This document shows, piece after piece, positions 6,297 to 10,083 of a stretch of 46,563 nt of DNA (its first letter is position 1; every line of letters begins with the position of its first letter). The stretch is from a virus (Duplodnaviria > Heunggongvirae > Uroviricota > Caudoviricetes): positions 1 to 46,563 of IMG/VR virus record IMGVR_UViG_2721755658_000005; one strand, 5' to 3'. The notes below the pieces were generated by a model. It did no database searches. It was not told the origin of the DNA and saw nothing but the letters and a program-made list of their open reading frames with translations. The position numbers and the translations under genes are program-made.

Positions 6297-6386
6297 GATA
6301 ACAGTTGGAAATCATTCAATACTCGCACTATCGGAAGTTCACCAGCCAACCGCAGCACGTTCTTGCATACGACATGCCTGCGGTTT
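6297..6386 (+). repeat. copy A of a ~90-nt structured repeat (ends in hairpin CCGCAGCACG...CATGCCTGCGG + TTT)
   Basis: It aligns without gaps to 8972-9061 with about ten mismatches by eye. One mismatch pair is compensatory: GTTGG/CCAAC in copy A versus GCTGG/CCAGC in copy B. Confidence 0.8.
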
Positions 6387-6407
6387 CAACTCCCGCCAGC
6401 TCCACCA
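6380..6407 (+). other. look-alike of the 3' terminus of tmRNA (ssrA): GCGGTTTCAACTCCCGCCAGCTCCACCA
   Basis: It differs at one position from the E. coli ssrA 3' end as I recall it (GCGGGTTCAACTCCCGCCAGCTCCACCA). This is probably an att-site relic of an ssrA-targeting element. Confidence 0.55.
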
Positions 6408-6531
6408 ATCATGATTGGACGGTTAAGGACAACACCAATAAAAACAGGAAGTTAGCAGTCTCAGCAGGACACCGACCAGACGGTGAGGAGACAAAAAAGG
6501 ATACGCAAAGGAGCCGCGGCTCCCGAGTGAC

Positions 6532-6567
6532 AAAAAAGCCCGCTTATGCGGGCTTTTTTGTTTTTTT
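6532..6567. terminator. bidirectional intrinsic terminator
   Basis: AAAAAA-GCCCGC-TTAT-GCGGGC-TTTTTTGTTTTTTT. It lies 10 nt downstream of the Bro-N gene stop on the minus strand. Confidence 0.75.
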
Positions 6568-6576
6568 CCCTCAAGC

Positions 6577-7338
6577 TCACTGACGTGTTCTTGCCTCAAC
6601 TACTTTCTGGTATATAGCGATAGCTTCATCAACCAAAGCTAATGGATAGCAAGAATTTATATTCAATCCGGAGGGGCACTTAATTCTTTCTGCTCCACGT
6701 TCACTACGCAATTTTTCACACCATTGCCAAAGTTCCTCAACTGAATAGGTATCCAAACCTAACTCCATCAATCGTTGAGGAACACTTCTGAACTGAGACA
6801 AATCTCTTAAACTTTCTAACGAGTTAACTTTTAGTTCAACTTGGTTTACTCTACTTTCTAACTCTTCACGTTTTTCTATTTCCATTACCAATGCTTGAAC
6901 CGTCTGCTGCAGACTGTTAGCAAAAGCACTCAGTTCTGAACGTTCTTGTTTAGGTGGCGGAGGATATACACCAAATTCACGAATAGACGGAAGGACCTGA
7001 TGAAAAAGCCAGCGTTGGAATTTTTTCCCCGCAGCAGTAGTATCCTGAGCAAGTACTCTATATAGACCTGGTTCAGTAAGAAATACCTCAGAGATAGTTT
7101 CACCATCCACGACAAGAGAAACATTCCTAAACTCATCTGGATCTAAAGTTTTTATTACCGCTTTTATTACAGTGAGCAAGCTTTGAGAAGTCTTTCCATC
7201 CAGTTTTCTGTTCTCAGCAGAAAGCGTTCTTAGCACATCTGAAAGTGAAACAAAAATCTGCCCTTTTTCATTCATGCTACGGATATAATTTTCTCCACAC
7301 TCTCCTTCGTAGCATAATTGTAACAAATTCTTTTGCAC
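6577..7338 (-). CDS. Bro-N domain protein (antirepressor-like) with coiled-coil C-terminal half
   Basis: EVFLTEPGLYRVLAQDTTAAGKKFQRWLFHQVLPSIREFG is the Bro-N signature. The start is a GTG preceded by AGGAGG. Confidence 0.75.
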   Translation of the reverse strand: MQKNLLQLCYEGECGENYIRSMNEKGQIFVSLSDVLRTLSAENRKLDGKTSQSLLTVIKAVIKTLDPDEFRNVSLVVDGETISEVFLTEPGLYRVLAQDTTAAGKKFQRWLFHQVLPSIREFGVYPPPPKQERSELSAFANSLQQTVQALVMEIEKREELESRVNQVELKVNSLESLRDLSQFRSVPQRLMELGLDTYSVEELWQWCEKLRSERGAERIKCPSGLNINSCYPLALVDEAIAIYQKVVEARTRQ

Positions 7339-7361
7339 GCCATCCCCTCCTTTTTTTATGG

Positions 7362-7389
7362 ATTATACATCCTATAAACATGTTGTCAC
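7362..7389 (-). promoter_or_regulatory. candidate sigma70 promoter for the Bro-N gene
   Basis: On the minus strand: GTGACA, 16 nt, TATAAT, upstream of the AGGAGG-GTG start. Confidence 0.4.
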
Positions 7390-7616
7390 CGAAAGGGAAA
7401 AGCATAAACCCAATTTATGTTCCACAAGATGTTCAAAAATCAAACAACCATATAGCTGAGGAGCACAAAAGAGCAAAAGTTTACCAACCCCATATATCCA
7501 TACAGCACATAAAATTGACACTACATGTGGTATTTTTTAAGTTACGCCTTGCACCATTTCATGGTTTTATGTAGATTGTCATCACACGCTGAGATTAAAA
7601 AATTCTACAATTTTTG

Positions 7617-7645
7617 TTGATCTTGAGTTTGGTTTTTAGTATAAG
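7617..7645 (+). promoter_or_regulatory. candidate sigma70 promoter for the XRE-ImmA operon
   Basis: TTGATC, 17 nt, TATAAG. A GGAGG Shine-Dalgarno and the ATG at 7672 follow. Confidence 0.5.
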
Positions 7646-7671
7646 TGAGCATGGATTGTAGGAGGCGCAAC

Positions 7672-8022
7672 ATGGTAACTAGCTTTGGTAAGACTCTCAG
7701 AAAAATGAGAATAGACCGGGGTATGGTGCTCAAAAATATGGCTGATCTGTTAGGCGTTAGTTCGGCTTACTTATCCGCCATTGAATTAGGCAAAAGAGCT
7801 ATACCGGACTCATTAGTAAATACGATTGCAACAACTTTTGAGCTTAGCGGACAAGACATCATCAATCTCAAGAAACAGGCAGAGATTTCTCAACCGTCCA
7901 TTAAGGTTGATATGTCGGATGCAAATGAGCAGAACAAAGAACTAATGCTTGTTTTTGCTCGTAAATTTAAGGACCTGAGTCCAGAGCAACTCGATAAGCT
8001 TAATAAAATGTTAAAGGACTGA
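7672..8022 (+). CDS. XRE-family helix-turn-helix regulator
   Basis: FGKTLRKMRIDRGMVLKNMADLLGVSSAYLSAIELGKRAIP is a canonical HTH_3 sequence. The ATG at 7672 has a GGAGG Shine-Dalgarno. The track start at 7645 lies inside the -10 element. Confidence 0.8.
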   Translation: MVTSFGKTLRKMRIDRGMVLKNMADLLGVSSAYLSAIELGKRAIPDSLVNTIATTFELSGQDIINLKKQAEISQPSIKVDMSDANEQNKELMLVFARKFKDLSPEQLDKLNKMLKD

Positions 8023-8025
8023 ATA

Positions 8026-8559: not shown

Positions 8560-8566
8560 CGAAAAA

Positions 8567-8589
8567 GCCAGCGAACCGCTGTCGCTGGC
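8567..8589 (+). terminator. hairpin after the ImmA gene (weak terminator)
   Basis: GCCAGCGA-ACCGCTG-TCGCTGGC is a perfect 8-bp stem, but the trailing T-run is poor. Confidence 0.4.
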
Positions 8590-8684
8590 TTCTCCTATCG
8601 TAAGCAAATACGAAAAACTTGGCGGTTGTGAGTATACGCTTACCTTAGGTTTTGTCAACAGCGAAACTTTACAGGTAACACGAT

Positions 8685-8828
8685 ATGACCATTGAAAAAG
8701 CTGTATCTGAGGAATACATCACAATTTACCGTCCTTTTATTACGGTCAAAGGTAAACGGATCTTTGCTCGTCAAAAAGGCTTGGCAGCCTTTCCTATCAA
8801 AATTCCTGCCTCTAAGTATCGAGGATAA
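8685..8828 (+). CDS. 47-aa basic small protein (below the ORF-track cutoff)
   Basis: The ATG at 8685 to the TAA at 8826-8828 encodes MTIEKAVSEEYITIYRPFITVKGKRIFARQKGLAAFPIKIPASKYRG. It has its own downstream terminator. Confidence 0.35.
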   Translation: MTIEKAVSEEYITIYRPFITVKGKRIFARQKGLAAFPIKIPASKYRG

Positions 8829-8842
8829 TCTTTGCTAATCTT

Positions 8843-8868
8843 AGGCCCTTTTCTAGGGCCTTTTATTA
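8843..8868 (+). terminator. intrinsic terminator
   Basis: AGGCCC-TTTTCTA-GGGCCT followed by TTTATT. Confidence 0.55.
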
Positions 8869-8971
8869 CACTTCTGTTACGCGCACCACAGATAGAGTTT
8901 CAGCTAAAACTTTTGTTCATACCTAGGAGTCTGCTGACGAGTGGTTTGTTCACTAATAAACACGTAAAAAC

Positions 8972-9061
8972 GGTAACGGCTGGACATCATTCAATATTCG
9001 CACTATTGGAAGTTCACCAGCCAGCCACAGCACGTTCTTGCATACAACGTGCCTGCGGTTT
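8972..9061 (+). repeat. copy B of the ~90-nt structured repeat (hairpin followed by TTTTT)
   Basis: See copy A. This copy ends CCTGCGGTTTTT. Confidence 0.8.
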
Positions 9062-9249
9062 TTGAGACCGGTCCGATCATCAAACGAAACATAAAATTAG
9101 CTCACACTATGAGGAAAAGTATCTTTTTTTACTATGTAAATTCAAAGAATTAGCCTCATTTACCCGATAGTTTTCTCAACACTACTGGTTGTGAGCCCTT
9201 GCAATGTTCATTAATATACGTCTCACAAATAATTCATAGATATTGCAAA

Positions 9250-10023
9250 ATGGATATTACTGAGTTTCCTTCTGGAGTAATTGAACACCTTGGCTGGTAT
9301 GTATACCGATTGATTGATCCGAGGGACGGAAGCACCTTCTATGTAGGGAAAGGCAAAGGTAACCGCGTATTTGCCCATATGCGCGGTGAAGTGGCAGCGA
9401 CTGATGATGACGAGTTACTGAGCAACAAGCTAAAGCAAATTAGAGAAATAAGGTTAGCAGGACTTGAGGTTATCCATGTCATCCATCGACACGGAATGAC
9501 TGATGAAAAGACGGCGTACGAAGTTGAAGCAGCACTTATTGATGCCTACCCTGGGTTAACGAATATCATGAATGGTGCTGGCAGCAATGAATTCGGCGCC
9601 GCGCATGTCAAAGAGTTGATAGCAACATATCAACCCGAAACCATAACATTTCATCATAAAGCATTAATGATTTCCGTTAACAGAAGTGCAAAGGATTCAG
9701 AGCTTTATGATGCGGTTCGATTTAGCTGGCGCATTAATGTCTCTCGCGCCAGCCAAGCAGAAGTCATTCTTGCTACTGTAAGGGGGATCGTTCGAGGGGT
9801 TTTCATTGCTGATAAATGGCTCAAATCAACACGTGAAAATTTCCCTACGATGAAATACTGGGACGAGGATCCGGACTTTGAGGCAACACAAAGTTCTCGC
9901 TATGGTTTTGAAGGTCGAGAAGCCCCACCTGAAATAGCAAATCTTTATCTTGGAAAAAAAATACCAGATGAATTAAGAAAAAAAGGAGCTATGTCCCCGG
10001 TCCGTTACTCACCTAATTTTTGA
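9250..10023 (+). CDS. GIY-YIG-type nuclease domain protein with uncharacterised C-terminal domain
   Basis: The N-terminus [29 protein letters not shown] gives GIY- and YIG-like motifs plus Arg. A downstream acidic YEVEAALID follows. The ATG is at 9250. The track start at 9199 is an alternative codon. Confidence 0.7.
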
Positions 10024-10043
10024 GTCTTTAAGTGATAAGCATA

Positions 10044-10083
10044 AACCGCAGCACGATCTTCTTCCATACGACGTGCTACGGTT
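10044..10083. terminator. partial copy C of the repeat hairpin; bidirectional terminator between the GIY-YIG gene and the invertase gene
   Basis: AACCGCAGCACG-N16-CGTGCTACGGTT forms a 12-bp stem with one mismatch. It is flanked by T-runs on both strands and abuts the invertase stop at 10084. Confidence 0.6.

Follow-up and report, generated by a model that had tools for sequence, protein, structure and literature searches.

Three repeat copies and their cargo cassettes

The 46,563-nt stretch of Caudoviricetes DNA analyzed here (IMG/VR record IMGVR_UViG_2721755658_000005, positions 1 to 46,563; hereafter the window) carries on its plus strand three copies, referred to as A, B, and C, of a structured element of about 100 nt that lies between cassettes of cargo genes. 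Copies A (6280-6386, repeat family D1) and B (8955-9061) are full length and score 111.8 bits over 6294-6393 and 108 bits over 8969-9068, respectively, against a covariance model of the element. Copy C (10044-10083) consists of the terminal hairpin only and lies between the stop codon of a PD-T4-3 defence gene (10023) and that of the invertase gene pin (10084-10086, minus strand). The two-domain layout of the full element is best followed in copy A, in which a first helix (stem 1) pairs 6303-6309 with 6341-6347 around an invariant segment at about 6310-6340, and is followed by a hairpin at 6348-6385 with the loop CTTGCATAC.

An initial annotation, made from the letters of the window, had described copies A (6297-6386) and B (8972-9061) as about 90 nt long, gap-free in alignment with some ten mismatches, joined by a copy C that keeps the terminal hairpin alone, all three on one strand and at cassette boundaries. 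This description held throughout, with exactly 10 mismatches in the 90 nt, all three copies on the plus strand between gene cassettes, and copy C aligning to element positions 69-107 only (83% identity, with a 3-nt insertion in the loop). The A-B similarity reaches 17 nt further left than had been recognized, giving 87% identity over 107 nt (6280-6386 against 8955-9061; blastn E = 3.6e-33), and its 3′ limit among A, B, and C is the same GCGGTTT. The open reading frames (ORFs) overlapping A and B sit in different frames relative to the repeat, as had also been stated, and homologues differ by 1-nt insertions or deletions, so that a protein-coding element was rejected.

Both full copies in the window depart from the family pattern. 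A TAnAAT hexamer that precedes stem 1 elsewhere is degraded to CAAAAT in A (6290-6295) and to TAAAAA in B (8965-8970), and each hairpin contains a single mismatch, C-A in A and A-C in B. Copy A folds weakly (z = -1.7, with the C-A mismatch); copy B reaches z = -3.55. The hairpins are followed by UUUCA in A, UUUUUG (five T in the DNA) in B, and UUUCAUUU in C. Directly upstream of copy B lies the 3′ remnant of a dinI gene (8900-8956, plus strand), ending in ...SADEWFVH* and bearing an in-frame stop and an internal deletion, which was recognized by comparison with the intact dinI-like ORFs of 82-93 codons found at 39 other loci.

The repeats are located at one end of a single 41.4-kb prophage (3666-45107) integrated at thrW in a segment of an Escherichia coli chromosome. 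This assignment follows from the presence of thrW itself (tRNA-Thr(CGU), 45120-45195, minus strand, identified by ARAGORN), of a 387-aa integrase ORF, int, that points at it (43942-45105, plus strand), and of a displaced tRNA-Thr 3′ fragment at 3608-3665 (minus strand, direct repeat family D3), which marks the far attachment junction and matches 45108-45165 as a 58-nt direct repeat with 91% identity. The prophage carries Mu-type tail genes, the pin invertase, and an invertible fibre segment, according to the annotation of a 98.8%-identical relative, and the three copies occupy the end farthest from int, between pin and the tRNA fragment.

The cassette between A and B consists of a minus-strand BRO-N gene (6577-7338, Pfam) that diverges from a plus-strand pair encoding a CapH-like helix-turn-helix (HTH) protein (7645-8022) and a CapP-like ImmA/IrrE peptidase (8026-8559), both identified with Pfam and PADLOC. 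This BRO-N/HTH/ImmA module is common to the A-B cassette, to phage LLS, where it follows the phage attachment site (attP), and to E. coli strain C7, where it follows ssrA. Between B and C lies the PD-T4-3 gene, a GIY-YIG defence gene (9199-10023, plus strand; PADLOC PDLC04031, E = 2.7e-140; Pfam LEM-3_GIY-YIG). To the left of A, a minus-strand cargo span (4081-6107) comprises a 570-aa AriA/OLD-like AAA ATPase (4081-5793, Pfam and PADLOC) and a 94-aa ORF with no family assigned. Related genomes carry other genes at this left position, strain LR-62-2 differing to the left of window position 6192, and the region is a hotspot for cargo and defence genes.

Structure and distribution of the element

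A total of 115 distinct copies were gathered from IMG/VR and annotated records, and a covariance model was built from a hand-checked, gap-free seed of 28 sequences with a two-domain structure; its search of 100 loci returned 116 matches, 86 of them distinct. Across these 86 copies, 89.5% of the cells at paired positions are occupied by pairs, compared with 20-48% when the partners are slid by 1-3 columns, and 18 of the 20 pairs show changes on both sides. Compensatory cells number 137 against 32.6 ± 8.7 in shuffled alignments, with none of 500 shuffles reaching 137; the alignment was fitted to the covariance model and is biased toward the structure by that step, yet the slid controls and the variety of pair types speak for a genuine signal. 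RNAalifold applied to a plain MAFFT alignment proved unsuitable, as a 1-nt bulge shifts the 3′ arms out of register. Covariation support for the two helices, the 7-bp stem 1 and the hairpin of 13-14 bp, is real and strong.

Two sequence families share this fold. Stem 1 reads GGCUGG/CCAGCC in family 1 and GACUGGC/GCCAGUC in family 2 and encloses about 31 nt, within which a 24-nt block, AAUCAUUCAAUACUCGCACUAUCG, is wholly invariant. The GC-rich hairpin abuts stem 1 with no spacer, and its stem is nearly all different between the families (AACCGCAGCACGUU/GACGUG(G)CUGCGGUU vs GCCGCAAUCAUGCU/GGUGUGGUUGCGGC); its 9-nt loop, CUUGCAUAC, is nearly invariant. Folding energies of the hairpin range from -12 to -26 kcal/mol in most copies, and good copies of the element fold with z = -3.5 to -4.8.

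Selection on structure had been proposed initially from a compensatory difference between GTTGG...CCAAC in A and GCTGG...CCAGC in B. The proposal is upheld by the family, although through other pairs than the one put forward. The two substitutions exist (6305 T/C and 6349 A/G) but their pairing register is wrong: the 6305:6349 pair is broken in 32 of 81 distinct homologues, occurs as U-A only in the type to which A belongs, and is often equalled in score by shuffles. Family-wide, 6305 has its partner at 6345, within stem 1, and 6349 is a position of the 3′ hairpin.

Of 5426 complete E. coli genomes, 5411 (about 99.7%) contain matches to copy A, at a median of 3 places per genome and a maximum of 10, nearly all of them unannotated; matches also occur in 195 phage records that include lambda, HK633, phiP27, and Stx phages. 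Lambda carries one full copy (J02459, 24162-24265, int strand) between ea31 and ea47, and a hairpin-only copy between the stop codons of ea47 and tfa. In E. coli K-12, Qin carries a full copy at its ydfJ end and Rac a hairpin-only copy at its ttcC end, and a near-full copy precedes ykgJ by 45 nt. When one genome per species was scanned for the pattern, the element turned up in Escherichia, Shigella, and Citrobacter alone, where its hosts are lambdoid and Mu-tailed prophages. Matches assigned to Streptomyces, Enterococcus, Pseudoxanthomonas, Vibrio, several metagenome-assembled genomes, and others (loci L131, L134, L137, L139, L143, L147, L150, L155, L159, L161, L165-L167, L169, L171, L172, L174, L175, and L177) were rejected as lambda DNA contamination, because these mostly tiny, low-coverage contigs show the same 104-nt match extent and percent identity as lambda, with the exception of L177 (87.5% vs 88.5%).

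At gathering thresholds, an Rfam search of the whole window returned tRNA-Thr alone, and no Rfam family covers the whole element. The element sequence, in DNA or RNA letters and on either strand, was absent from the searchable literature, and a search for work on ea47 and ea31 brought nothing of use. Its hairpin is already in Rfam, as the predicted terminator of the RNA CssrB, and the full two-domain element was not found described in that literature. The element thus represents an overlooked conserved feature, present even in lambda, with strong covariation support and not in Rfam as a whole.

The K-12 ykgJ locus (stretch 301500-305500, with features at 2112-2311, 2354-2683, and 2728-2890 of that stretch) contains, in order, a dinI remnant, the element, ykgJ, and a tfa 3′ remnant on the opposite strand (Rfam IS009). 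A host origin of this copy was rejected in view of the dinI remnant upstream and the opposing tfa remnant; the core-genome locus looks like a fossil prophage end, a resemblance from which it follows that ykgJ itself may have arrived as prophage cargo. The tfa remnant occupies the yagU-ykgJ spacer, where the small RNA (sRNA) EcsR2 was reported. EcsR2 (Raghavan 2015) was set aside, since it is located in that spacer and not in the ykgJ-ecpE spacer.

Probable transcript ends and candidate roles

The surroundings of the element follow a recurrent scheme. Upstream on the element strand lies an integrase, a phage dinI homologue, or a cargo gene. At the 39 loci with an intact dinI-like ORF, about 20 nt separate its end, ...ETLKDTWESADEWFVH*, from the element; a 3′ remnant of dinI is kept both at copy B and at the K-12 ykgJ copy. 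In Sp15, the Stx1 prophage of E. coli Sakai, the left end carries a dinI homologue with a LexA-type box CTGT-N8-ACAG (CTGTACATAACTACAG), followed by a full element (features at 3230-3290 and 3545-3638 of the Sakai stretch 2893000-2906000). In family 2, a divergent umuD-like gene stands upstream. On the downstream side, the nearest ORF typically begins 104-124 nt from the element start and belongs to a pin, tfa, or tail-fibre gene on the minus strand, the stop codon of which comes within 0-17 nt of the hairpin; in the other cases plus-strand cargo follows. In HK633, 64 nt separate the element from the int stop and 4 nt from the stf stop; the phiP27 copy lies between attR and the tail-fibre stop; and in the window the pin stop codon touches hairpin C. 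The module is standard equipment between integrase or attP and the last tail-fibre, tfa, or pin gene, with the hairpin where two convergent transcription units meet.

Crude ORF clustering distinguished 35 neighbour families among 92 non-redundant junctions, and in many other prophages, as in the window, the element marks a cassette boundary. In at least 11 loci a full element is followed by plus-strand cargo of about 1 kb, next by a hairpin-only copy, and finally by a convergent late gene; three kinds of cargo occur in this order (PD-T4-3, a SAM methyltransferase, or lambda ea47). Hairpin-only copies like C, scoring 27-46 bits, occur in 11 other loci.

The hairpin has two hallmarks of an intrinsic terminator, a GC-rich stem-loop and a location at the 3′ end of transcription units. 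It is followed by 3-7 U in most family-1 copies, by no U-run in family 2, and by none on the minus strand in any copy. Positions 149-180 of CssrB (Rfam RF02799) correspond to a hairpin-only copy read on the opposite strand. CssrB is an RNA of about 180 nt, verified by northern blot in Shigella flexneri 301, with a 3′ end assigned by terminator prediction (Peng et al. 2011, PMC3071730). Full CssrB matches (230 bits) were found in two loci only, L133 and L138; in the window, a permissive Rfam search of 5800-10400 gave minus-strand hits of 22-23 bits at 6351-6424 and 10047-10106, below the gathering score of 76, along with terminator look-alikes at 6529-6562. The weak hits on A and C arise because the last 32 positions of CssrB are a member of the hairpin family, read from the opposite strand; its body (1-148) is absent from the window, and the 5′ domain of the element is no part of CssrB. 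In addition, EcOnc47, a peak from Hfq crosslinking and analysis of cDNA (Hfq-CRAC), maps at or beside the Sp15 hairpin on the opposite strand, assuming an uncertain shift of 128-142 nt between genome versions. With CssrB and, approximately, EcOnc47 both on the opposite strand, the hairpin seems to serve RNAs of both orientations. Another peak, EcOnc43 at the right end of Sakai Sp5, was excluded, as that region contains no element.

The explanation favoured here, to which a probability of roughly 60% is given, is that the three repeats (A and B in full, C as the hairpin only) represent a structured non-coding module of about 100 nt that acts as a shared transcript-end hairpin and as a point of cargo exchange. 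The hairpin would provide a factor-independent transcript end usable both ways, combining a terminator with a protective 3′ hairpin; in the window, hairpin C would end both PD-T4-3 and pin. With an identity of 80-93% between phages that otherwise have no relationship, the module would also supply local homology for the exchange of cargo cassettes, and extra copies would stay behind at cassette boundaries. Copies A and B would then be such leftovers in decay, with their damaged boxes and mismatched hairpins and, for B, the dinI remnant. The module is a landmark for the hotspot where cargo and defence genes collect, from the attachment site to the tail-fibre genes, and could help to find new cargo; as a place where lambdoid mosaic joints would form, its sequence is concrete and testable.

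Several observations weigh against this explanation. A simple terminator consensus scan does not call the hairpin, which has a 9-nt loop and, in copy A, only 3 T after the stem. Family 2 lacks a U-run in either direction, yet its stem is kept by many compensatory changes and its loop is invariant, so that termination alone cannot explain the element. Neither an invariant segment of 24-31 nt nor an invariant loop is expected of a plain terminator. The role as a recombination linker is deduced from the distribution of copies, and the strand evidence conflicts, with the hairpin favouring the plus strand and the inner pairing of the 5′ domain the minus strand. Of the three readings in the initial annotation, the bidirectional terminator module fits the hairpin best, given the convergent stop codons and the predicted CssrB terminator; termination leaves the invariant segment, the loop, and family 2 unexplained. 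The small RNA gene family, another of those readings, may apply to the invariant 5′ domain with its conserved TAnAAT box. The 5′ domain could be an sRNA, an operator, or an element of the late transcript.

The strongest competitor, tentative but compatible with the terminator and exchange module as far as the hairpin is concerned, is that the full element is a plus-strand sRNA gene transcribed from the TAnAAT box and starting at stem 1, or else an sRNA derived from the 3′ untranslated region of an SOS-inducible dinI transcript; the invariant segment or the YUNR-type CUUGCAUAC loop would be the seed and the hairpin the terminator. The box lies 8 nt upstream of stem 1 and is kept in five unrelated upstream contexts, with positions 1, 2, 4, 5, and 6 at least 90% conserved and position 3 free (A/C/G/T), the pattern expected of a -10 hexamer, and family 2 keeps a TTGNNN 16 nt upstream of it (for example TTGAAC-16-TACAAT). 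The plus strand is also favoured by the hairpin, whose cells on the plus strand show 79 G-U against 31 A-C (leaving out the loop-closing U-G) and whose energy in family 2 is -21.6 kcal/mol on the plus strand vs -15.7 on the minus strand. The invariance of the single-stranded parts beside covarying stems, and the U-run after most family-1 hairpins, fit an sRNA as well. However, no convincing -35 was found in family 1, a promoter scan gave nothing upstream of A or B, and the box is damaged in both of these copies. Unlike typical Hfq-dependent sRNAs, the element has no A/U-rich spacer before its terminator, and the only public RNA evidence placed near a copy, EcOnc47, is on the opposite strand. 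A search for complementary targets of at least 12 nt in the prophage found none, and the single 11-mer in the 46.5-kb window is at chance level; nor does any paper in the searchable literature contain the sequence. In its fullest form, this idea makes the element an undescribed structured RNA gene, carried by lambda and by prophages of essentially all E. coli, with the TAnAAT box as its promoter and, in many cases, a LexA-controlled dinI shortly before it; the invariant segment and the YUNR-type loop would act in trans, on RNAs of host or phage or on a protein, during lysogeny or SOS induction, with the hairpin doubling as shared terminator; this possibility is held at rather low confidence. 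If the 5′ domain were indeed an sRNA, it would be a very widespread phage-borne regulator, possibly linked to the SOS response.

A somewhat improbable alternative is that the element works in minus-strand RNA, where it would form the 3′ end of the late transcript or the pin transcript and be a back-up terminator, an insulator, or a processing site (RNase III cleavage or Hfq binding). Read in this direction the hairpin comes first and is followed by the reversed 5′ domain as a hairpin of 16-18 bp with a GUGCGAG loop, which would stop antisense transcription into dinI, int, and attP. The reverse strand does give the better fold of the 5′ domain: averaged over 95 copies, the full element reaches -34.0 kcal/mol on the minus strand vs -28.9 on the plus strand, with values of -38.7 vs -31.5 kcal/mol (z = -5.4 vs -4.0) for one family-1 copy and -37.8 vs -34.6 for one family-2 copy. 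An inner stem is available to the invariant segment, in which three conserved A-C oppositions of the plus strand become G-U, and the lambda and family-2 variants each add a G-U only on the minus strand. The RNAs known at hairpin copies, CssrB and approximately EcOnc47, have this orientation, and the hairpin abuts minus-strand stop codons. Against these points, the inner stem is invariant and thus receives no covariation support, neither hairpin is directly followed by a U-run, the family-2 hairpin is weak in this direction, the way the box varies suits a -10 hexamer more than a U-tract, and the EcOnc47 placement depends on the uncertain shift.

Far less probable is a DNA operator for a dimeric regulator at the invariant segment, where an imperfect inverted repeat, TTCAATA-N7-TATCGAA, lies just downstream of TAnAAT. 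The dyad symmetry, the neighbouring promoter-like box, and the invariance of the 24-nt block across families whose flanking stems have diverged would suit such a site, but no regulator is consistently linked to neighbourhoods that vary widely, the flanking stems covary as in an RNA and not as in a protein-binding site, and the hairpin is left unexplained.

The terminators of phage morons are among the known systems closest to the proposed module. Like these, the element would be a factor-independent hairpin that ends an inserted gene, and its short conserved boundary sequence would be a site of mosaic joints; generic moron terminators are mutually unrelated, whereas the element is one family of about 100 nt with an invariant non-terminator domain and loop in hundreds of phages. 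Clark et al. (2001), like Juhala et al., reportedly dealt with moron terminators and the linker-sequence idea at lambdoid module boundaries. In a passage of PMC4104026, the idea of a "linker sequence" for module exchange is cited to Juhala et al. 2000.

The tI/sib region of lambda offers a second parallel, as the element in phiP27, Qin, and Sp15 occupies a comparable place, on the far side of attP from int and at the prophage end away from int, and is an RNA structure at the end of an int-direction transcript. The two are not homologous: a covariance-model search of lambda 19662-28765 found two copies of the element only, with nothing near attP or sib. Lambda contains sib as well as the element, at a distance of 3.3 kb. 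In further contrast to sib, no attP separates the element from the upstream gene in HK633 and in dinI-linked copies, and the plus strand forms no long duplex of the RNase III type. The convergent prophage sRNAs of enterohaemorrhagic E. coli, AgvB, AsxR, and other EcOnc RNAs, lie at conserved moron insertion sites (Tree et al. 2014, PMC4104026). These are likewise prophage-borne RNAs with convergent ends in one short intergenic space, but they lie downstream of PR′ and not at the junction of int and tail fibre, are unrelated in sequence to the element, and gave no Rfam hit in the window. An identity of the element with the anti-sRNAs of Tree et al. was rejected on the same grounds, their location at PR′ and their unrelated sequence.

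The ssrA piece beside copy A

Copy A runs into a 28-nt sequence (6380-6407, plus strand), GCGGTTTCAACTCCCGCCAGCTCCACCA, which covers the last part of ssrA, the gene for transfer-messenger RNA (tmRNA), with its T-arm and acceptor strand, and which is the attachment (att) core of ssrA-integrating elements. Its recognition in the initial annotation as one mismatch away from the E. coli ssrA 3′ end was accurate (27/28 identical, confirmed against the annotated ssrA of strain C7), as was its identification with the att core of CP4-57-type integrases. The label of a tmRNA 3′-end mimic, on the other hand, has to be replaced, for this is a true ssrA 3′ end continued by about 155 nt of ssrA-downstream sequence (6408-6562, plus strand), the P′ side of an LLS-type attP, with a strong terminator at 6529-6562; the whole is an attP fossil. 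The sequence 6387-6562 has matches of about 91% identity in 4301 of the 5426 E. coli genomes, where these lie at and beyond ssrA; in K-12, the match is the attR of CP4-57, which shares core and flank. Strain C7 has an intact annotated ssrA followed by the same 176 nt (99.5%), BRO-N, HTH, ImmA, GIY-YIG, and tail genes. Phage LLS (PQ299149) reads xis, int, gene 31, an annotated tmRNA pseudogene/attP, P′ (92% identical), BRO-N, HTH, ImmA, further genes, and an invertase. The stretch 6380-8559 thus derives from an LLS-type attP, of which it keeps core and P′ side, the int side having been replaced in the window by copy A and other cargo.

The window site shares with the attP of LLS and CP4-57 the ssrA 3′ end and the same P′ (6380-6562), and with LLS the BRO-N/HTH/ImmA module, but differs in having neither a cognate integrase near 6380 nor a second copy of the core in the window, in which the prophage ends are tRNA-Thr repeats. 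For lack of integrase and partner site, and given integration of the prophage at thrW, the piece is judged a fossil att site, a relic and not an active one. Many copies of the element are fused to decayed ssrA cores (CAACTCCGTCCCCCACCA or poly-C runs) that are still followed by ATCATGATTGG (L049, L022, L067, L122, L089, and L028). Since so many copies share the fusion with decayed cores, the block of element, ssrA core, and P′ must be old and has been inherited widely. The lone mismatch to ssrA falls exactly at the joint, GCGG|T|TTCAAC, where the element normally ends CTGCGGTTTCA and ssrA reads CGCGGGTTCA. The joint may come from either secondary-site integration or microhomology.

The least probable of the explanations, and a very unlikely one, is that the repeats are recombination sites, that is, landing pads or scars of site-specific cassette capture in an integron-like manner or by secondary-site integration of an ssrA-type element. 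The similarity of A, B, and C does end at the same GCGGTTT, and in A and many other copies the ssrA att core is joined to this edge, precisely at its T-arm; the resemblance of the element end to ssrA is such that a single secondary-site integration could explain the junction at A. The annotators of HK633 also placed attP on the element, citing similarity to the ykgJ-ecpE spacer, and the HK633 and ykgJ copies share 36 identical nt. The ykgJ copy, with its dinI and opposite tfa remnants, is however a prophage-end fossil and not a dedicated attB. Copies B and C and those of lambda, Qin, and phiP27 have no adjoining att core, the phages concerned differ in integrases and sites, and the two hairpins that flank one cassette are not recent duplicates of each other. 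The only recombinases present are Pin and the thrW-side tyrosine integrase. An integron-like mechanism, as first entertained, is not supported, given the lack of IntI, cassettes in both orientations, copies without an att core, and a boundary, GCGGTTTCA, that does not fit GTTRRRY; the related idea of a scar of site-specific accretion keeps some plausibility only where A meets the ssrA core.

Some further features of the window lie outside these subjects. The invertase gene next to copy C, pin (10084-10674, minus strand; Pfam Resolvase and HTH_7), is named pinE in close relatives, and beside its 5′ end short tail-fibre and tfa-like ORFs in opposite orientations (10665-12179) form the expected invertible host-range segment of a Pin/Gin-type system. 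To the left of 3608, window positions 1-3600 hold the end of a CP4-6-type island, with antirestriction, RadC, DUF987, and toxin-antitoxin genes; because this end directly adjoins the 58-nt tRNA-Thr repeat, two elements stand in tandem at thrW. Within a 313-aa minus-strand ORF, five tandem 15-nt units similar to CAGATTTTGACGGGT (38903-38977) look like the iterons of a replication origin in an O-type replication gene.

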